Under the pieces are notes generated by a model. The model saw only the letters and a list, made by a program, of their open reading frames with translations, was not told where the DNA came from and did not search any database. The translations under genes and the position numbers were made by a program. DNA of 64,000 bases from an uncultured Chloroflexia bacterium (GTDB lineage: Bacteria; Chloroflexota; Dehalococcoidia; DSTF01; WHTK01): assembly GCA_963732945.1 (NCBI GenBank), contig CAVTBL010000017.1, positions 257,944 to 321,943 on the forward strand, in the 5' to 3' direction. Below are positions 7,745 through 15,530 of this stretch, piece after piece. Numbering within the stretch: position 1 is the stretch's first letter; each line of letters starts with the position of its first letter.

Positions 7745-8176
7745 TTAGGACAGGCGGACCACGCCCGGCTGGTCCGGCTGCCAGTCCTGGAAAGTCGGGC
7801 CGTCCGGCGCTCGGTACTCACGAAGCGAGATCAGGTAGCCGGAGGGATCCCTGATCTGGGCCTGGTGCCCCCAGAACGTCATCGCCGCCCACGGCTCGCG
7901 AGCCACTTCGACGCTTCGGGCTCGCAGCTCGGTCAGGGTGCGCTCCATATCGTCGACAACGAGGCCGATGCGTAGCTCACTGCGGCCGTCGGTTGAAGGT
8001 GTGGTGGTCGAAGGAGTGAGCTCCAGCAGTATCTGGCCCAGTTCGATATAGGCCGAGAGGCGGCCGTTGGTCGTGTACTTGCGCAGCAGCTTGAAGCCCA
8101 GGTTCTGGGTGTAAAAGGCGATCGACTCGTCGACGTCACGGCAAGGCAGGTAGATATGACTGATGTTCTTGATCAT
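7745..8176 (-). CDS. VOC/glyoxalase family protein
   Basis: ISHIYLPCRDVDESIAFY..LGF, RDPSGYLISL. Confidence 0.88.
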   Translation of the reverse strand: MIKNISHIYLPCRDVDESIAFYTQNLGFKLLRKYTTNGRLSAYIELGQILLELTPSTTTPSTDGRSELRIGLVVDDMERTLTELRARSVEVAREPWAAMTFWGHQAQIRDPSGYLISLREYRAPDGPTFQDWQPDQPGVVRLS

Positions 8177-8264
8177 GCACGTCTCCTCGCCTCTCCTGGC
8201 AGGGTGACTCTGCCACCGTGAGCGCGGTGTGTCCAGTCATCCTCGGCGACCCGGACATGGTCGT

Positions 8265-8342
8265 GCGTAAACACTGTTATCTCCAGAGAACTGATCTCGA
8301 TCGTGCGGGACCTCGTCGGTAAACGGCGCGTAAACATTGTTA
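8265..8342. promoter_or_regulatory. Candidate operator pair upstream of the SipW/TasA operon
   Basis: GCGTAAACA(C/T)TGTTA at 8265-8279 and 8328-8342, plus a further GTAAAC at 8319-8324. Confidence 0.4.
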
Positions 8343-8447
8343 CGAAGTCTTTACGGCCTCGCGGGAATTATTGACACTGACCACTCCGCAGTGTTTAGTC
8401 GAAGCGGACCGCCCCGTTAAACAGAAGAAGACAATTTCCTGATTGCG

Positions 8448-10304
8448 GTGTCGCGACGGCACTGCTGGTGGCGTATTGGCACGAAGCGAGGCAAGAACCT
8501 GAAAGGATCGCTCCTCCGTGCCTTCCTGTTGCTTCTCGCGATCGGGCTGGTTGCCACCTACGGAGTCAGGGGCTCCCTCAACCCGGCACACGTAACGACA
8601 GTTAGTGCCGCCGATCTCCAGATCGTCCTCAGCAGCAACGACACCGATACGCTGCAATTCCAGGTCGCCCTGGGCCAGCCTTGCGCCGATGCCCTGGCGC
8701 CCGGCGATTCCTGCGTCGCCACCGTAAAGGTCGAGAACAAGGGATCGACCGATAGCCCAGTCGGCATGCCGGAAATCACGGTGAGCGGCACGCTCGACAC
8801 CTGTAGCGGTGACGATCCGGCCAATCCGGGCGCGGGCGCCCACAACCTCAGCGTCTCGTTCCGCGACCCTCAGCCGACGGGCATGCTGCTCAAGGCAGGC
8901 GCCAGCGAGACCTTCGACGTCGTGTTTACCCTTAGCTCCGCCATGGGCAACGCCTGCCAGGGCAAGCAAGCGTCCATAGAGGTATTCGTAGCGACAGGAG
9001 CGTTCGCGCAGGGCCCCGGGGCGGCCGGACCATCGGCGACCACTGAGCCCGCGACGCAGGCGCCCGAAGCATCATCGCCGCCCGCCGAAGCCCAGCCCGC
9101 CGAGGAAGCGCCGGCAGCGCAGGCGCCACCGCTGGTTCCTACCTTCACGCCAATCCCAGCGCCGACAGAAACACCGGTACCCGCGACGCCGGCACCGACC
9201 GCATCCGTAACGGTGCAGACTCAGGTCGTTACGCCGACGCCATCGCCTACGCCGACCCAGGAGCTGCTTCCGCCCGCCACCGCTGAGCCGCGCACCTTCC
9301 TCGACAACCAGCCGGGCTTCTCGGAGATCTCGACCAACATTTCGGTCGTCGGAACGAACCTGTTCCTCGCCGTGCTGTCGCTGCTCACGCTGCTGGTCGC
9401 GACCACCGTCTTCAACTCGACGCTCGAAGAGAACGCCAGGGACATCGAAGCCGTAGCCCGCAAGATCACGGACTCACCGCGTGTTGCACCCATGGCAGCG
9501 GCGCTCGGCTGGCTCAGCGAGGAGGAAGCCGGCGGCACCCACGCTCTGCTCAACTGGCTCAAGCCGATCCTCATCGTCTTGATCACGGCCGCGATCTACG
9601 CGGTCATTGACCCGAACTTTGGCTTCAACAACGACACGCTGGTGCTGATCACGGCACTCGTGGCCGGCCTCGCGATGGCCACCTTCCTCTACGAGGGCGG
9701 CCAGGTCCTCTGGTCGACGCGCCGCTACGGGACGCCGGCCGCAATGCGCGTCTATCCGGTCGCCATCCTGATAGCACTTGGGTCCGTGGTGCTGACCCGC
9801 ATTACCAACCTGCACCCCGGCATCATCTTCGGCTTCGTCACCGCGGCCGCGATCTTCCCGCGTGGCGCCATGTCCAAGCGCGAGAAGGGCATGATCATCC
9901 TCGTACCGCTCGTCGGGCTCATGATCGTGAGCTTCGTGGCCTTCGCGCTGATCGATCCGCTGCGACGCCTCAGCCAGGACAACTCCGGTGTGCTCTACGC
10001 GCTACCTGAGACGATCGCAATCGCGTTGTTCGTTGGCGGCGCCGAGAGCGCGCTGCTCATCCTGCTCCCGATTCGCTTCAACGATGGCGAACGCATCTGG
10101 GAGTGGAACAAGCTGCTCTGGGTCATCCTGGCCGTACCAGCGACCTTCGCGTTCTTCCACATCATCATCGCCAACGACGACGGCGTACGCAGCATCACCA
10201 ACAACACCAACGCGATGACGCTGATTATCGTCTGCCTCGTCGTGCTCGTGATCTCATTCGCGACCTGGCTGTTCTTCAAGCTGCGAGATATGGGAGAGGA
10301 CTGA
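8448..10304 (+). CDS. TasA/camelysin-like N-terminal domain, Pro/Thr/Ala linker and polytopic (FGLLP-motif-like) membrane domain
   Basis: Signal-like LLRAFLLLLAIGLVATYG; LAPGDSCVATVKVENKGS; LSSAMGNACQG; long PT linker; multiple hydrophobic segments with LHPGIIFGF and LLPIRFNDGERI. Start uncertain (CTG at 8499 possible). Confidence 0.7.
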   Translation: MSRRHCWWRIGTKRGKNLKGSLLRAFLLLLAIGLVATYGVRGSLNPAHVTTVSAADLQIVLSSNDTDTLQFQVALGQPCADALAPGDSCVATVKVENKGSTDSPVGMPEITVSGTLDTCSGDDPANPGAGAHNLSVSFRDPQPTGMLLKAGASETFDVVFTLSSAMGNACQGKQASIEVFVATGAFAQGPGAAGPSATTEPATQAPEASSPPAEAQPAEEAPAAQAPPLVPTFTPIPAPTETPVPATPAPTASVTVQTQVVTPTPSPTPTQELLPPATAEPRTFLDNQPGFSEISTNISVVGTNLFLAVLSLLTLLVATTVFNSTLEENARDIEAVARKITDSPRVAPMAAALGWLSEEEAGGTHALLNWLKPILIVLITAAIYAVIDPNFGFNNDTLVLITALVAGLAMATFLYEGGQVLWSTRRYGTPAAMRVYPVAILIALGSVVLTRITNLHPGIIFGFVTAAAIFPRGAMSKREKGMIILVPLVGLMIVSFVAFALIDPLRRLSQDNSGVLYALPETIAIALFVGGAESALLILLPIRFNDGERIWEWNKLLWVILAVPATFAFFHIIIANDDGVRSITNNTNAMTLIIVCLVVLVISFATWLFFKLRDMGED

Positions 10305-10494
10305 TGGCTTCAACCCGACGCGATCGATTTCTTCAACGGCGCCGCTGTTGGCGTGCGCTGACATTACCCGAATACGCAATCGACCAGGAGGTACTCAGTG
10401 CCCGAAGACAGGAGTAGTCATTGACCGCGCAGCGCGTGTCACGGCGCGCCATCGGATACGAAAAGGCAACGGATAGCCACCAAGGAGGCAAGCA

Positions 10495-11223
10495 ATGCGA
10501 AGAAGTATTTTGACCAGCGTGGTGCTCATAGGCGCCGTGCTAGCCCTGGTCATCGGGGCCGGCACCTTCGCCGTGTTCTCCGACCAGGAGAGCATCTCGA
10601 CCGACCCCGCCCACAACCTCGTGGCGGGCTCCGTCGGCATCAAGATCAACCAGGGCACCAACGCCACCAACGGCGACACCAACGGCGTCTCGGACCTCGC
10701 TCTGATCGTCGACGGCCCTGACTCTGGCGCCGGTAACGCCTGCACCGTCACGACCCTGAACAGCGCCCCGCTGCCGACGCCGGTGGCTACGGTCACCGCG
10801 CCGACCGACTTCACCTACTGGGCGCCGGGCGACGAGTGCATAACGACGATCACGGTGAACCGCGGCCTGCCGGACAACGGCACCGTCGCGACCTACCTGG
10901 CCGAGGACCTCTACATCGACGGCATCTCGCTCGGTTCTTCCAACGGCACCTGGACCCAGGGCGCCGGCTCCGACTTCTACCTCGACTGCACCGGCGACGC
11001 TAACGGCTGGCGCGTCCGCATCAGCCCGTTCATCGATGACAGCAGTGGTCACGCCGCGTTCATGCCGGCCGCTGCCGCCGACACGGAGCACTTCACGATC
11101 ACGATCGACTTCGACGTCAACGCGCCGAACACGTGCCAGAACGACGGTCCTCACACCCTGGCTCTGACCGTGCGCACGACGCAGGACACGCTCGACCCGC
11201 ACAACACGAGCGACGCGCCCTAG
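10495..11223 (+). CDS. SipW-dependent signal peptide protein, TasA-like fibre subunit
   Basis: MRRSILTSVVLIGAVLALVIGAGTFAVFSD (GTxAxFxD), NLVAGSVGI, WAPGDEC, APNTCQN; strong AAGGAGG RBS. Confidence 0.85.
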   Translation: MRRSILTSVVLIGAVLALVIGAGTFAVFSDQESISTDPAHNLVAGSVGIKINQGTNATNGDTNGVSDLALIVDGPDSGAGNACTVTTLNSAPLPTPVATVTAPTDFTYWAPGDECITTITVNRGLPDNGTVATYLAEDLYIDGISLGSSNGTWTQGAGSDFYLDCTGDANGWRVRISPFIDDSSGHAAFMPAAAADTEHFTITIDFDVNAPNTCQNDGPHTLALTVRTTQDTLDPHNTSDAP

Positions 11224-11347
11224 CGTGCAGGTGGCCGGTTGGTCTGCAGTATGGAAAGGAGGCAGTAAACATGAGGCGATCTGAGTCAGCTCCGATGCAG
11301 CTTGTCGGGCTGTCACCTTGCCTGCCACGATTCGGGCGGACGGCGCC

Positions 11348-12259
11348 ATGACGCCGCGTTCGGACGAGGACGAGGCCGTGTCGCGCTACGAGGACGAGCG
11401 TCGCGGCGACGAGCCGCGTCGCGATGCGTCTCGCTCGAAGACGGGTCGTAGCGTGCCACCCGCGACGCCGTCGGACGCAAAGCGCCCAACCCTCGACGAA
11501 CTGCTCGGCATCTTCGCAGCCGAGCAGGCTCGCGTCGAGGCGGATGCGCACGCCCCGGCGCCAACGTCGCCCCTCGAGGCCGCATCGGTGACCGATCCGA
11601 TCGATGTCGCGGAGCACCATTCCGCGCGGGACGTCTCCCCGTATGAGGACGAACCCGGCGACGACGAAAACGCTACGCAGCCAGACGGCCGGCGATTCGG
11701 CAAGCTCAGCTTGACAATCGCCTCGTGGGCCGGCGTCCTCGTTGCCGCGCTCACATTCCTGGTGCTCGGCGGGCTGATCCTGGTGCCGCGCGCCATGGGC
11801 TGGCAGGGCATGGTCGTGCTCTCGGGCAGCATGGAGCCGGCGCTCAAGACGGGCGGTCTGGCATTCGTGCAGCCGCTCTCACGCGAGCAGATCGACCGCC
11901 TGAAGCCCGGCGACATCATCACCTTCCGCAACAGCGCCATCGCCGGCCTCGTCAGCCACCGCATCGTCCAGGTGAATCAGGGTGACGGCGGGCCGTCCTT
12001 CGTGACCAAGGGCGACGCCAACCCCCAGCCCGACGACGGCCAGGTTGCTGCCGCAAGTGTCGTCGGCAAGGTCCGCTTCTCTGTGCCCTACCTCGGGCGC
12101 CTGGTGGAACGGCTGCACAACCGCAGCACCTATCTGCTCTTCCTCGGTATACCGGCCGGCCTGCTCATTGCCGGCGAGCTGTGGAACATTGCCTCCGAGC
12201 TACAGCGCGCCCGGCGCGAGAAGACCGCGCACACCGACGTCGAAGGAGCGGTGTCTTGA
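11348..12259 (+). CDS. sipW: Signal peptidase I, SipW/Sec11 type (S26B), with long acidic N-terminal extension
   Basis: VLSGSMEP (Ser), GDIITF, VSHRIV (His), TKGDAN..DD, VVGKV..VPYLG. Confidence 0.92.
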   Translation: MTPRSDEDEAVSRYEDERRGDEPRRDASRSKTGRSVPPATPSDAKRPTLDELLGIFAAEQARVEADAHAPAPTSPLEAASVTDPIDVAEHHSARDVSPYEDEPGDDENATQPDGRRFGKLSLTIASWAGVLVAALTFLVLGGLILVPRAMGWQGMVVLSGSMEPALKTGGLAFVQPLSREQIDRLKPGDIITFRNSAIAGLVSHRIVQVNQGDGGPSFVTKGDANPQPDDGQVAAASVVGKVRFSVPYLGRLVERLHNRSTYLLFLGIPAGLLIAGELWNIASELQRARREKTAHTDVEGAVS

Positions 12260-13032
12260 TCAACCGCCGCGTCCTCCTGCTCGCGTTCTTCGTATTGGCC
12301 CTGGCAGCCGTCATTGTGCTGCCGGCCGCCATGCGCGGTACTTACGCGATCCAGACGGACGAGGAGCACGCGGCGGGCAATGTCACAGCCGGCGAATGGA
12401 CCACGCTCGCAGTCAGCGTGGCCTACGCGCCCACGGGTTCAGGCCCGGTCAGCGTCACGCTGAGCTGCACCGGCACCGGCGTCACGATCCTGAGCCTGAA
12501 CCCCCAGACGATCACACCCGGCACACCCGGCTACTTCCGCATCACCCGTAACCCGAGTGTCAACGCCTCATGCTCTGCAGTCGAGGACACGGTCCCGGCC
12601 GGCTACACCGCCGATCAGGCCTGCGAATCGCTATCGCTAAGCACGATTACGGCTAGCTGCACGATCACGAACACCCAGGACACCGGCACGGTCACTATCC
12701 ACGTCGCGGGCGGCCTCGGCACGGCATCGTTCGGCTTCACGACCGACCTGCCGGCGACCTGTACGCCTGATAACGCCGCGAACTTCACGCTCGATAACGA
12801 CGGCACGACGAGCACGTACTCAGACACCGAGACCTGCTCGGGCATCACGACGGGCGTCTACCACGTGACGGAGTCGTCCCTGCCGCCGACCTGGCAGATC
12901 GGCGACATCAGCTGCACGGAGTCCGGCGGCAACAGCGTGGCTAATACGACGCACGACACCACCAGCGTGACGGTTCACCTCGAGAAGGGCGAGACCGTGG
13001 AGTGCACCTTCACGAACGATCAGCCCGCCTAG
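12256..13032 (+). CDS. SipW-dependent secreted protein with Cys-containing prealbumin/SpaA-like beta-sandwich domains
   Basis: GTYAIQTD..GNVTAGEW signal motif; CTITNT, GVYHVTE..W.IGDISC, LEKGETVECTFTN; overlaps the sipW stop and has an AAGGAG RBS. Confidence 0.75.
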   Translation: MINRRVLLLAFFVLALAAVIVLPAAMRGTYAIQTDEEHAAGNVTAGEWTTLAVSVAYAPTGSGPVSVTLSCTGTGVTILSLNPQTITPGTPGYFRITRNPSVNASCSAVEDTVPAGYTADQACESLSLSTITASCTITNTQDTGTVTIHVAGGLGTASFGFTTDLPATCTPDNAANFTLDNDGTTSTYSDTETCSGITTGVYHVTESSLPPTWQIGDISCTESGGNSVANTTHDTTSVTVHLEKGETVECTFTNDQPA

Positions 13033-13123
13033 GGCGCCCGTTACCGACCCGAAATACAGACGTTATCTGCCGTTCATTCCGACGCAACGCCGCCTGCCTA
13101 TAGTCACGTGCGGGAGGTCTGCC

Positions 13124-13372
13124 ATGATTGCAGCCCAGCTCGGCCTCGGCGTCGCGACGATCGTGTTCGTTGCCTCGAATGCGCTCTCGGCGCGTGCGAC
13201 ACGAGACGACGCCGCATCACACACAGGCGACGCGCTGTCGGACGAAAAGGCCGCGGCCATCGCCGAAGCGCAGTCGTTGCTCGACAACGTCCTGCCGCCC
13301 GCAACGCACCGTCAACATCAAGCAGTCATGCTCGAGCACAACGGCCTCGCCGCTCGGCGGCGCCTCGCCTGA
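13124..13372 (+). CDS. Small hypothetical protein with hydrophobic N-terminus
   Basis: GGAGG RBS precedes the ATG; fills the gap between the operon and fusA2. Confidence 0.5.
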   Translation: MIAAQLGLGVATIVFVASNALSARATRDDAASHTGDALSDEKAAAIAEAQSLLDNVLPPATHRQHQAVMLEHNGLAARRRLA

Positions 13373-13478
13373 CGGAAACGACCCTCACAGGGGAACACGG
13401 GGACCACTAATCTCCGTCCTGCGCTGACTCGTGCTCCAGATCGGCACCCGCGCCCGGCGGGAGCCCCGCGCCCAACCG

Positions 13479-15530
13479 CTAGGTTGCGTGCTCCTTGGCT
13501 GCGGCCTCGATGACCTTCTTCGCTACGTGTTCCGGGACCTCTTCGTAGTGGTCGAAGCTGATCTCGAAGGTGGCGCGGCCCTGGGTTAGCGAGCGCAGGT
13601 CCGTGGCGTAGTGCTGCATCTCGGCCAGCGGCGCCTGCGCGTCGATCACCGTCACCTTGTCGTCCGGCGTGATGCCCAGCACGCGCGCGCGCTTGCCGTT
13701 GAGGTCAGAAACGAGGTCACCGGTGTAGCTCTCCGGTGTCCGGACGCGCACGTTGACGATCGGCTCCAGTAGGACGGGCCTCGCCTTGGAAGCGCACGCT
13801 TTGAGGGCCTGCGAGCCGGCGAGCTTGAACGCCATTTCCGACGAGTCGACCGGGTGCTCCTTGCCGTCGATTAGGCTGACGCGGATGTCGACGACCTGAC
13901 TGTGTGCCAGGATGCCCTCGCTCAGGGCCTCGTGCACGCCGTTCTCGACCGCCGGGACGTAGTGGCGCGGCACCGAGCCTCCGACCGTCTTGTTGACGAA
14001 CTCGAAGCCCGAACCGCGCTCCAGCGGCTCGATCTCAATCGTTACTTTGGCGTACTGGCCGTGACCGCCCGTCTGCTTCTTGTGCGTGTACTCGGCGGAC
14101 GAGTGCGCCGTCAGCGTCTCCTTGTAAGGCACGCGCGGCGTCTGATAGGCGATGTCGGCGCCGAACTTACGCCTCATCTTCTCGCAGGCGATTTCGACGT
14201 GCGACTCGCCGAGGCCCGCGAGGATGGTCTCGCCGGTGTCGGGGTCACGGTGCACCTGCAGGATCGGGTCCTCTTCGACGATGCGGGCCAGCGCCGAGCT
14301 CATCTTCTCCGTATCGGCCTTCGACTTGGGGAAGACGGCGACGCTGAACACGGGCTGCGGGAAATGGATCGGCGGCAGCTTCACCGGCGCATCCTTCGAG
14401 GTCAACGTGTCGCTGGTCAGCGTCTCGGCGAGCTTGGCCACCGCGCCGATATCGCCGGCGACCAGCTCGTGCGCCGGCTCCTGGTTCTTGCCGTGGATGA
14501 CATACAGGGTGCCAACGCGTTCGTCGACGCCGTGGTTGGCGTTCCAGACGTGGGAGTCGGCATGCAGTGTGCCGGAGAACACGCGCAGGTAGGTCAGCTT
14601 GCCGACGTAGGGGTCGGCCGTCGTCTTGAACACCTGCGCCGCCAGCGGGCCATTGGGGTCGGCTTTGATTTCGCTGCCGTCCTCCAGCCTGACCGGCTCG
14701 TCGGCGGGCGACGGAAAGAACTCTGCGATCGCGTCGAGGAAGTGCGACACGCCAATCGTCTTGGTCGACGACGCCGCGAACACCGGCACGAGGTCGCCGT
14801 GGTTGATGCCCATCGCCAGGCCCTTGCGCACGTCCTCTGGCGAGAGGTCGGCGGTCTCGAGGTACTTTTCCAGCAGCTCCTCGTCGTTCTCGGCGACGGC
14901 CTCGAGCAGCTGGCTGCGCAGCGATTCGACCTCGGCAGCCATCGCCGCGGGCACCTCGCCCTCGACACCCTTTTCGCCGGTGTATGCCTTCATGTCTATC
15001 AGGTCGATGACGCCCGAGAAGGCGTCCTGCGAGCCGATAGGCAGGTAGACGGGCACGCAACGGCGGCTGAGCGAGTCCTGGATCTGACGCAGCGCAGCGC
15101 CGAAGTCCGCGTTTTCGCGGTCGAGGCGGTTGATGAGGATTGCTTTCGGGACATCGCGCTCGTTCGCCATCTGCCAGGCCAGCTCGGTGCCGACCTGCAC
15201 GCCCGAGGCCGCGCACACAACGATCACCGCCGTGTCCGCCGCCGCGAGGCCGCTGTAGGCGTCGCCGATGAAGTCGGCATAGCCGGGCGCGTCGATCAGG
15301 TTGAGCTTGTCGCCCTTCCACTCGATCGGCAGCAGCGAGGCGTTGATGCTGACCTTGCGCTTGATCTCGTCCGGGTCGAAGTCGGACGACGTGGTGCCGT
15401 CATCGACCCTGCCCAGGCGGTTGATGGCGCCACTAACAAACAAGGCGGCCTCGGCAAAAGACGTCTTGCCGGTGCCGCCATGTCCCAGGAGAACGAGGTT
15501 ACGAATCTTCTCTGTAGGGTAGTCCTTCAT
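13479..15530 (-). CDS. fusA: Elongation factor G paralogue (EF-G2), outside the str operon
   Basis: GHGGTGKT, DAPG, NRLD, HKKQTGGHGQY, DSSEMAFK; 683 aa. Confidence 0.95.
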   Translation of the reverse strand: MKDYPTEKIRNLVLLGHGGTGKTSFAEAALFVSGAINRLGRVDDGTTSSDFDPDEIKRKVSINASLLPIEWKGDKLNLIDAPGYADFIGDAYSGLAAADTAVIVVCAASGVQVGTELAWQMANERDVPKAILINRLDRENADFGAALRQIQDSLSRRCVPVYLPIGSQDAFSGVIDLIDMKAYTGEKGVEGEVPAAMAAEVESLRSQLLEAVAENDEELLEKYLETADLSPEDVRKGLAMGINHGDLVPVFAASSTKTIGVSHFLDAIAEFFPSPADEPVRLEDGSEIKADPNGPLAAQVFKTTADPYVGKLTYLRVFSGTLHADSHVWNANHGVDERVGTLYVIHGKNQEPAHELVAGDIGAVAKLAETLTSDTLTSKDAPVKLPPIHFPQPVFSVAVFPKSKADTEKMSSALARIVEEDPILQVHRDPDTGETILAGLGESHVEIACEKMRRKFGADIAYQTPRVPYKETLTAHSSAEYTHKKQTGGHGQYAKVTIEIEPLERGSGFEFVNKTVGGSVPRHYVPAVENGVHEALSEGILAHSQVVDIRVSLIDGKEHPVDSSEMAFKLAGSQALKACASKARPVLLEPIVNVRVRTPESYTGDLVSDLNGKRARVLGITPDDKVTVIDAQAPLAEMQHYATDLRSLTQGRATFEISFDHYEEVPEHVAKKVIEAAAKEHAT

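Follow-up and report, generated by a model that had tools for sequence, protein, structure and literature searches.

A cluster of four genes in a stretch of DNA from an uncultured soil Chloroflexota bacterium (contig CAVTBL010000017.1) probably encodes a surface fibre of the TasA superfamily, in which subunits matured by a SipW-type signal peptidase would be joined by donor-strand complementation into a polymer made up of a major subunit, a base anchored in the membrane and a tip with a SpaA-type domain. The whole stretch analysed, 64,000 nucleotides (nt) long, is referred to as the window, and positions are given in window numbering. The cluster had been picked out in an earlier note, made from the sequence without database searches, as four co-oriented genes for a TasA-like membrane fusion, a TasA-like subunit, a SipW-type peptidase and a SpaA-like protein with a SipW-type signal. 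All of these open reading frames (ORFs) are present on the plus strand, span 8448–13032, and are called genes 1 to 4 here (Table 1). The parts list that the note drew from them, namely a major subunit, an anchored protein, a peptidase and a SpaA-type minor protein, is supported by homology and by comparative genomics. Judged from the sequences of related loci, the anchor of the proposed fibre is exchanged within one genus between a sortase sorting signal, (L/F)PxTG, and a multi-pass membrane domain.

The protein encoded by gene 2, the proposed major subunit, begins with a signal of the type recognized by SipW (TIGR04088, 25.2 bits, cut-off 19), which contains the motif GAGTFAVFSD and occupies residues 1–26, with cleavage predicted after GTFA. 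Among 1.84 billion proteins, its homologues at E<=0.001 come to 16 representatives, two of which (P0009 and P0015) look spurious and were left out of the alignments. The resulting family alignment (A1, 14 sequences) conserves the signal, MRRSILTS..IGAVLALV.GAGTFAVF[ST]D, an APGD.C box and a C-terminal N.CQG...T.ATQ..PH box, and the alignment of the gene 1 N-terminal domain family (A2, six sequences) carries the APGD.C and N.CQG-type boxes of A1. When the two families are compared with hhalign they match at a probability of 97.9% (E 5.5e-13) over 127 mature-domain columns, and in genome searches each alignment recovers the other's protein, A1 matching the gene 1 domain at E 8.9e-10. By these profile comparisons the gene 2 protein and the N-terminal domain of gene 1 are paralogues. 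Cysteines are conserved in both TasA-like domains (in gene 1, C79, C89, C119 and C170), within the APGD.C and N.CQG boxes; gene 2 has four (C83, C115, C165 and C214) and a single, non-conserved lysine. This conservation suggests that the subunits may be stabilized by disulfides, a kind of Cys stabilization that the accessible parts of the papers on TasA (PMC9674648) and BsaA (PMC11580942) do not describe.

The tie to TasA itself runs through several profiles. The protein P0033 matches the Pfam family of TasA, Peptidase_M73 (PF12389), over model positions 18–192 of 196 (41.9 bits, E 1.3e-10), and hhalign aligns it with A2 at a probability of 78% (E 1.8e-5) and with A1 at 96.6% (E 6.7e-10, 164 columns), part of the A1 score being due to the common signal peptide, which is a first point against the kinship. 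A profile search with the gene 2 family gave 25 clusters, and PF12389 is matched at E<=0.01 by 16 of the 31 members of an enlarged gene 2 family alignment (A3). With the signal removed (residues 27–242), 22 of 30 matches of gene 2 in the Atlas are clusters carrying PF12389, with scores of 0.92–0.93, the family being present in 17–46% of the members per cluster in the three rows shown. At the level of profiles, gene 2 and the N-terminal domain of gene 1 belong to the TasA superfamily. The description of gene 1 as a TasA-like membrane fusion therefore holds at that level, and for gene 2 the SipW-type signal and the strong ribosome-binding site (RBS) are confirmed and the TasA likeness stands at profile level, while the PF12389 cut-off was missed.

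Several other results weigh against a TasA-type subunit and have to be set beside these. On gene 2 itself PF12389 reaches only 13.3 bits against a cut-off of 22.5, over residues 11–51, which is the signal region; mature gene 2 alone, as well as residues 1–201 of gene 1, match no Pfam family, and the gene 2 homologues form a small and patchy family. An AF2 model of gene 2 made from the single sequence was unusable, with a predicted local distance difference test score (pLDDT) of 40.3, and the model based on A3 (mean pLDDT 69.6), which counts in favour of the fibre, has a confident beta core at residues 110–240 and a low-confidence, unpacked N-terminal part at residues 26–96. Foldseek returned no match to this model at E<=0.001, its top rows being chaperone–usher pilins at a non-significant E of about 0.01–0.1. 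Structural alignment with VIA-align stayed at Z <=5.6 overall and left TasA-type structures tied with unrelated beta sandwiches: AbpA (7ueg) gave Z 5.0 with a root-mean-square deviation (rmsd) of 4.8 over 134 aligned residues, Tafi (9p0a) gave Z 4.7, rmsd 4.7 and 136 aligned, and the TasA fibre (8aur) gave Z 4.3, rmsd 5.8 and 140 aligned, these three having the longest aligned stretches. A complex prediction with three copies of residues 27–242 and A3 (score 0.00, mark 0.42) counts neither way. Sequence searches of the PDB found nothing relevant with genes 1, 2 and 4, and with A1 only the signal region matched, to an archaeal flagellin at E 0.13.

The names attached to the family also invite another reading, in which gene 2 would be the precursor of a ribosomally synthesized peptide or a camelysin-type metalloprotease. 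Homologues are automatically named ‘predicted ribosomally synthesized peptide with SipW-like signal peptide’, and the Pfam family is called Peptidase_M73. This reading is hardly credible, since a predicted folded beta domain of 216 residues is left after signal removal and no modification enzymes are encoded in the cluster; as for the protease, published work holds that the family was probably called a peptidase by mistake (PMC11580942).

That gene 3 encodes a SipW-type peptidase, as the earlier note had it, is confirmed by TIGR02228 (88.7 bits, cut-off 51.85) and by Pfam Peptidase_S26 (25.1 against 22.9). The equivalog model of Bacillus SipW, NF046067, scores 90.7 bits against a cut-off of 190, and because it stays below that cut-off gene 3 is a relative of Bacillus SipW and not its orthologue by NCBI's rule. 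Residues G170-S171-M172, P174, H214-R215, G232-D233, N235 and D239 are invariant in all nine aligned homologues; they form GSMxP, HR and GDxN boxes, whose Ser, His and Asp we take to be the catalytic residues. There are two hydrophobic transmembrane (TM) segments, at residues 138–156 and, C-terminally, 273–291. The catalytic domain (residues 144–271) is preceded by an acidic extension of about 140 residues that is probably cytoplasmic. The comparisons made here draw on 41 related genomes and on a sample of 301 genomes of the class, both including the bacterium's own; related genomes are numbered G0xx and their loci L0xx. Only the homologue in G011 has the extension in common with gene 3 (46% identity over residues 42–303). 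A second SipW-type peptidase gene (TIGR02228, 58.2 bits) lies on the same contig outside the window, at G000:C17:360692-361408 on the minus strand, among small secreted-looking ORFs, and that region may be a second SipW-dependent locus.

Gene 4 matches SpaA_4 (PF24514; 37.9 bits, cut-off 27.3) over model positions 7–106 of 107, so the SpaA part of its earlier description is borne out. The signal part fared less well. TIGR04088 recognizes none of six tip proteins scanned, gene 4 and its counterparts in five relatives, which speaks against the proposed fibre; what remains is a resemblance seen on reading the sequence, GTYAIQTDEE, and a weak targeted profile alignment of A1 with residues 4–56 (8.6 bits). 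Across the six tip proteins the best stretch found with A1 has an independent E-value (i-E) <1e-3 at Z=1 in four, a weak signal, and it is N-terminal in the three alignments inspected. The protein has one lysine, no LPXTG signal and no C-terminal TM segment. Its start is most likely TTG 12256, because this codon follows an RBS and overlaps the SipW stop as TTGA; GTG 12181 is probably too early. In relatives the tip proteins contain one to six SpaA_4 repeats, followed in two loci (L043 and L046) by RTX-type calcium-binding repeats. Similar Gly/Asp-rich C-terminal repeats were seen, by eye only, in L042 and in an ORF adjoining the tip gene of L044.

Gene 1 combines one N-terminal hydrophobic segment (residues 22–40) and its TasA-like domain, with conserved APGDSC...N.G and N.CQG motifs, with a long Pro/Ala/Thr-rich linker and a C-terminal domain that has about eight hydrophobic segments. 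The latter matches the NCBIfam family NF041501, ‘cola_mem’ or FGLLP motif-containing membrane protein, over residues 289–607 and model positions 3–312 of 312 (172.1 bits, cut-off 150; E 1.4e-50). The start of gene 1 at GTG 8448 is supported because P0017, the closest relative of the N-terminal domain, is conserved from residue 1 (73% identity). P0017 (324 aa, on a 58,634-base contig) continues after the linker in another frame of the gene 1 DNA (61% identity, nt 696–977), which indicates the same fusion with a frameshift in the linker, the result of either an assembly frameshift or a pseudogene. The membrane domain is 64% identical to that of an 866-aa protein of G011 and 57% identical to a paralogue on contig C11; aligned, the three paralogues have 148 invariant positions in 340 columns, including FNST.EEN, LYEGGQ, HPG..FGF, GGAES and FNDGE. 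No enzyme or transporter family of Pfam or NCBIfam matches it, and its nearest Atlas clusters are unnamed and mostly from Actinomycetota, with a lead to Peptidase_M50 (0.76) that is below the trust level of the tool. Linkers like that of gene 1 also precede cola_mem in paralogues and in relatives, and NF041501 looks like a general membrane module of surface proteins.

A second explanation is the display of non-filamentous proteins at the surface. The SipW-type peptidase would then mature beta-sandwich proteins working singly or in small oligomers, such as envelope or matrix proteins or adhesins, without forming a long fibre, and gene 1 would be one more cola_mem-anchored surface protein. Three cola_mem fusion proteins, with ectodomains unrelated to one another, are encoded in the genome; the two beyond gene 1, of 684 aa (G000:C11:12646-14700, plus strand) and 989 aa (G000:C6:67901-70870, minus strand), have Pro/Thr-rich linkers and no SipW-type peptidase within 9 kb. 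Relatives have still other fusions, for instance with DUF7507 repeats in L041. A SipW gene lies within 8 kb in only 3 of 26 cola_mem loci, so the domain is not specific to loci of this kind, and the signal of gene 1 is unlike the SipW-cognate type and is not matched by TIGR04088. Across the order, SipW-type peptidases are common and present in multiple copies, the gene 3 protein finding matches in 34 of the 41 genomes, and the fold searches single out no fibre-forming fold. All of this counts against a fibre. On the other hand, profile comparisons tie the subunit family to PF12389, and those members of PF12389 that have been studied (TasA, CalY and BsaA) form fibres (PMC9674648, PMC11580942). 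Moreover, free and anchored paralogues are kept together with a peptidase of their own and a tip-like protein whose N-terminal segment matches, as in the layout of known donor-strand fibres. Surface display is, on balance, unlikely though by no means negligible, and the donor-strand fibre is preferred.

Related loci show the same module with a different anchor. The order subunit, anchored paralogue, SipW and SpaA protein is found in G008 (L043), G016 (L042) and G011 (L041), often with overlapping stops and starts. In G012 (L046) the subunit gene was not detected, the A1 match being only inside the anchored paralogue, and G001 (L044) retains SipW, the SpaA protein and part of the paralogue. In the class sample TasA-like genes stand directly beside SipW in L084, L085, L086 and L087. 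The free-standing paralogues of L041, L042, L043 and L046 (270–330 aa) end with (L/F)PxTG, a TM segment and a basic tail, which make up a sortase sorting signal; the anchored paralogue of L087 has PATG, a TM segment and a basic tail, and for the L085 protein the output gave the TM segment and basic tail only. A sortase gene directly follows the tip gene in G008 and G012, with a best match to class F (120 bits, cut-off 166). A CheY-like receiver-domain ORF (L043 6034-6444, minus strand), identified by eye only, lies immediately upstream of the module in G008 and may be a regulator.

In the window no anchored paralogue stands between subunit and SipW, and its domain instead heads the cola_mem protein encoded upstream of the subunit gene. 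The idea that a remnant of the paralogue gene lies between gene 2 and the catalytic part of gene 3 was rejected, since the only matches to A2 in the genome are genes 1 and 2. Two other loci carry TasA-like/cola_mem fusions: L060 (G011:C28), in the order SipW, SpaA protein, fusion, and L062, from a Dehalococcoidia metagenome-assembled genome, in the order subunit, SipW, fusion. NF041501 scores 174.5 and 176.8 bits on them, and A2 matches their N-terminal domains with probabilities of 68% (E 4.8e-5) and 88% (E 2.8e-6), respectively. The SipW ORF of L062 (5129-6247, plus strand, 372 aa) runs on, adding another signal-like segment and a C-terminal part rich in beta structure, and is either a SipW/tip fusion or the product of a missed stop. 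G011 has an 866-aa cola_mem protein with four DUF7507 repeats (L041 9704-12304, plus strand, on G011:C8) that is divergent from the LPXTG-type TasA module beside it. This arrangement is a possible intermediate, and the 866-aa protein is a plausible donor of the membrane domain of the window fusion. A search with gene 1 for related loci in a collection of genome contigs found no relative.

The module is rare and patchy, and its limited conservation counts against the fibre. Among the 41 genomes the gene 2 protein finds matches in 4, A1 in 9 and A2 in 8, and in the class sample A2 matches 4 of 301. A synteny survey had been proposed as a check, and its outcome was mixed: the order of the module is kept in G008, G016 and G011, but the module is rare and the flanking genes (PHP, SDR, VOC and EF-G-like) are not common to the relatives' modules, so its position is not syntenic. 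The proposal that the fibre is sortase-independent was likewise upheld in part. It stands for the window, where the cluster has no sortase gene and no LPXTG signal, but not for the congeners, whose module is linked to sortase.

These sortases raise the further alternative of a SpaA-type pilus polymerized by sortase, with gene 4 as its pilin. Besides the sortases beside the module in G008 and G012, the SpaA_4 domain of gene 4 would fit such a pilus, and the bacterium's own genome has four sortase matches above cut-off, on other contigs (C3, C4 and C6). The chance of it is nonetheless very remote, given a locus without sortase, genes 2 and 4 with one Lys each and neither LPXTG nor a C-terminal TM segment, and a sorting signal that in the relatives is on the TasA-like paralogue and not on the SpaA protein.

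Another possibility concerns what the membrane domain does. In an alternative that we hold to be quite improbable, cola_mem would be an active membrane machine that replaces the sortase of the sister loci, perhaps as a platform for assembly, a primer resembling a chaperone or an enzyme that attaches the fibre. It is far better conserved than any ectodomain (57–64% identity and 148 of 340 positions invariant, as given above), it takes the place of LPXTG plus sortase within one genus, and Actinomycetota have proteins of 301–378 aa, about the length of the domain alone; moreover, a membrane-bound chaperone drives the Gram-positive donor-strand pilus of E. faecalis (bioRxiv 10.64898/2026.10.17.759780). 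Against this, the domain falls into no enzyme or transporter family and its Peptidase_M50 lead is not to be trusted, and 23 of the 26 cola_mem loci are without a SipW or TasA-like neighbour and have diverse passenger domains, which fits a generic anchor. That cola_mem might be more than an anchor while the fibre and the anchor swap within one genus both stand, that is, a membrane-embedded assembly or retention machine taking over the role of sortase, is a speculative extension and an improbable one. If it were true, NF041501 proteins, which are common in Actinomycetota and Chloroflexota, would represent a new class of surface-protein attachment modules in monoderm bacteria.

For the donor-strand fibre itself the following course of assembly can be proposed. 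The products of genes 1, 2 and 4, all with N-terminal signal-like hydrophobic segments, would be exported by Sec, and the gene 3 peptidase would remove the gene 2 signal after GTFA (A26) and probably the gene 4 signal too. In TasA the donor strand comprises residues 28–38, directly after the SipW site, and TapA gives the first strand through a similar N-terminus (PMC9674648); by analogy, cleavage of gene 2 would free an equivalent N-terminal segment. Gene 2 subunits would then join head to tail, the N-terminus of each completing the sheet of the next. Since SpaA prealbumin domains replace the jelly roll in gene 4, this protein could donate a strand but not accept one, and would therefore, like TapA, donate the first strand and become the distal, adhesive tip or nucleator. 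The TasA-like domain of gene 1 would accept the last free strand, with its linker of about 100 residues and its NF041501 domain holding the fibre to the cell. The signal of gene 1 may stay uncleaved, and the polarity of the fibre could be the reverse of that proposed here.

Table 1. Features of the gene cluster in window numbering.
Feature	Position	Strand	Description
Gene 1	8448–10304	+	618 aa; signal/TM segment, TasA-like domain, Pro/Ala/Thr linker, polytopic membrane domain; proposed fibre base/anchor
TasA-like beta domain of gene 1	8598–8999	+	about residues 51–184
Pro/Ala/Thr-rich linker of gene 1	9003–9311	+	about residues 186–288; P 26, A 20, T 17 of 105 residues
NF041501 (cola_mem) domain of gene 1	9312–10268	+	about 8 TM segments
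RBS of gene 2	10482–10488	+	AAGGAGG, 6 nt ahead of ATG 10495
Gene 2	10495–11223	+	242 aa; SipW-cognate signal and TasA-superfamily domain; proposed major subunit
Short upstream ORF	11271–11351	+	26 codons, strong RBS GGAAAGGAGG; stop overlaps ATG 11348 as ATGA
Gene 3	11318–12259	+	SipW/archaeal-type (S26B) signal peptidase I; start TTG 11318 or ATG 11348
N-terminal extension of gene 3	11318–11746	+	acidic
Catalytic domain of gene 3	11747–12130	+	residues 144–271
RBS of gene 4	12243–12248	+	AAGGAG, 7 nt ahead of TTG 12256
Gene 4	12256–13032	+	258 aa from TTG 12256; SpaA_4 protein; proposed tip/nucleator
Layout of gene 4			N-terminal signal, TasA-like segment (GTYAIQTDEE...TAGEW), two Cys-rich beta domains
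SpaA_4 domain of gene 4	12703–13020	+	second of the two Cys-rich beta domains

The operon appears tight, because genes 3 and 4 overlap and RBSs precede genes 2 and 4 (Table 1). The short ORF ahead of gene 3 may be a leader for translational coupling of the SipW gene; no counterpart was seen in relatives, where the gene of the anchored paralogue abuts SipW. The bounding genes are unrelated and on the opposite strand: a VOC/glyoxalase-like ORF reaches to 8176 on one side, and on the other an EF-G-like ORF lies from 13479 onwards. A scan of 7800–13600 with Rfam gave no RNA family, no promoter-like sites were found, terminator-like sites numbered 2 against 2.7 expected, and the spacer 10300–10500 folds no better than its shuffles (z 0.22). 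A search of public sequencing runs listed 10 DNA runs, from soil, wetland and rice paddy metagenomes, each with less than half of the query words, and no RNA run.

TasA-superfamily donor-strand fibres are an emerging mode of building biofilm matrix across domains of life, and their attachment to the cell is the least understood part. The window and its sister loci amount to a natural experiment in which one set of subunit, peptidase and tip is combined either with LPXTG and sortase or with a multi-pass membrane fusion. The anchored TasA-like paralogue thereby gains a testable role as the base of the fibre, and the uncharacterized NF041501 family a first functional context. The cluster also points to a possible surface appendage of uncultured soil Chloroflexota, a group in which the biology of the cell surface is barely described. 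In agreement with the earlier note, the literature gave no characterized Chloroflexota system of this kind and no mention of FGLLP or cola_mem, although supplements of the cited papers, which were outside the scope, may list Chloroflexota loci; nor was an NF041501-fused anchor subunit found there, or its alternation with LPXTG and sortase in one genus. Homologues in the phylum are already in print, for TasA (PMC9245690) and for AbpX-like loci with LPXTG or SLH anchors and sortases (bioRxiv 10.64898/2026.01.04.697558).

The nearest known systems have much in common with the cluster. With tapA-sipW-tasA of B. subtilis (PMC9674648) it has in common a dedicated SipW-type peptidase, a SipW-cognate signal on the subunit and the link to PF12389, and gene 4 is like TapA in that its N-terminus resembles the donor strand of the subunit and its body is a different beta sandwich. 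The layout is nevertheless outside that of Bacillus, as had been claimed: the order is anchor fusion, subunit, sipW and SpaA protein, and no TapA-named family came up in Pfam or NCBIfam. Here there is a second, membrane-anchored TasA-like paralogue, the subunit is Cys-rich and below the Pfam cut-off, the peptidase has a 140-aa N-terminal extension and falls below the SipW equivalog cut-off, and the accessory protein has SpaA-type domains. The four-gene operon sipW-bsaA-bsaB-bsaC of C. perfringens (PMC11580942) likewise codes for two paralogues of the TasA type and, as a third secreted product, for a protein that has an adhesion-type domain. Its BsaA subunits are locked by an N-K-E isopeptide triad, unlike gene 2 with its single non-conserved Lys and conserved Cys; the published account, as far as it was accessible, gives it no membrane-anchored paralogue, and secretion of BsaC needs the type IV pilin PilA3 and that of BsaA type IV pilus proteins.

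Loci with a subunit, a tip, an anchor and a signal peptidase I have been described for Tafi (PMC12337348), for AbpX-like systems (bioRxiv 10.64898/2026.01.04.697558) and for TasA/TapA (PMC9674648), a precedent that speaks for the proposed fibre. The haloarchaeal Tafi, a TasA-superfamily donor-strand filament, has all four roles in one locus, with TafE/TafA as pilins, TafC as tip, TafF as anchor and TafD as signal peptidase, and its anchor pairs a jelly-roll-like domain with a membrane segment (PMC12337348), much as gene 1 pairs its TasA-like domain with a membrane domain. In the Tafi anchor a single helix comes first and the jelly roll follows, whereas in gene 1 the domain is followed by a long linker and about eight TM segments. 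Many Tafi pilins use twin-arginine translocation (Tat) signals, and the cluster described here, bacterial where Tafi is archaeal, has no DUF5305 partner or regulator. AbpX loci bring together TasA-superfamily and minor subunits, tips, signal peptidase I, envelope anchors and sortases, a combination that corresponds to G008 and G012; their signal peptidase I has ten TM helices where gene 3 has two, and the accessible text does not mention a polytopic NF041501 anchor (bioRxiv 10.64898/2026.01.04.697558). The Elr WxL pilus of E. faecalis (bioRxiv 10.64898/2026.10.17.759780) is also a donor-strand pilus of a monoderm, with a tip adhesin, a terminating base subunit anchored by sortase and a membrane protein encoded in the operon. 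By joining donor-strand exchange to anchoring through sortase it is reminiscent of the sister loci and their hybrid design. Its WxL subunit family is unrelated and reported from Bacillota only, and its chaperone is of the DUF916/DUF3324 type, none of which was identified in the cluster. Measured against these systems, the overall architecture is one already described in archaea and Bacillota and makes no new category; the new part is the anchor swap.

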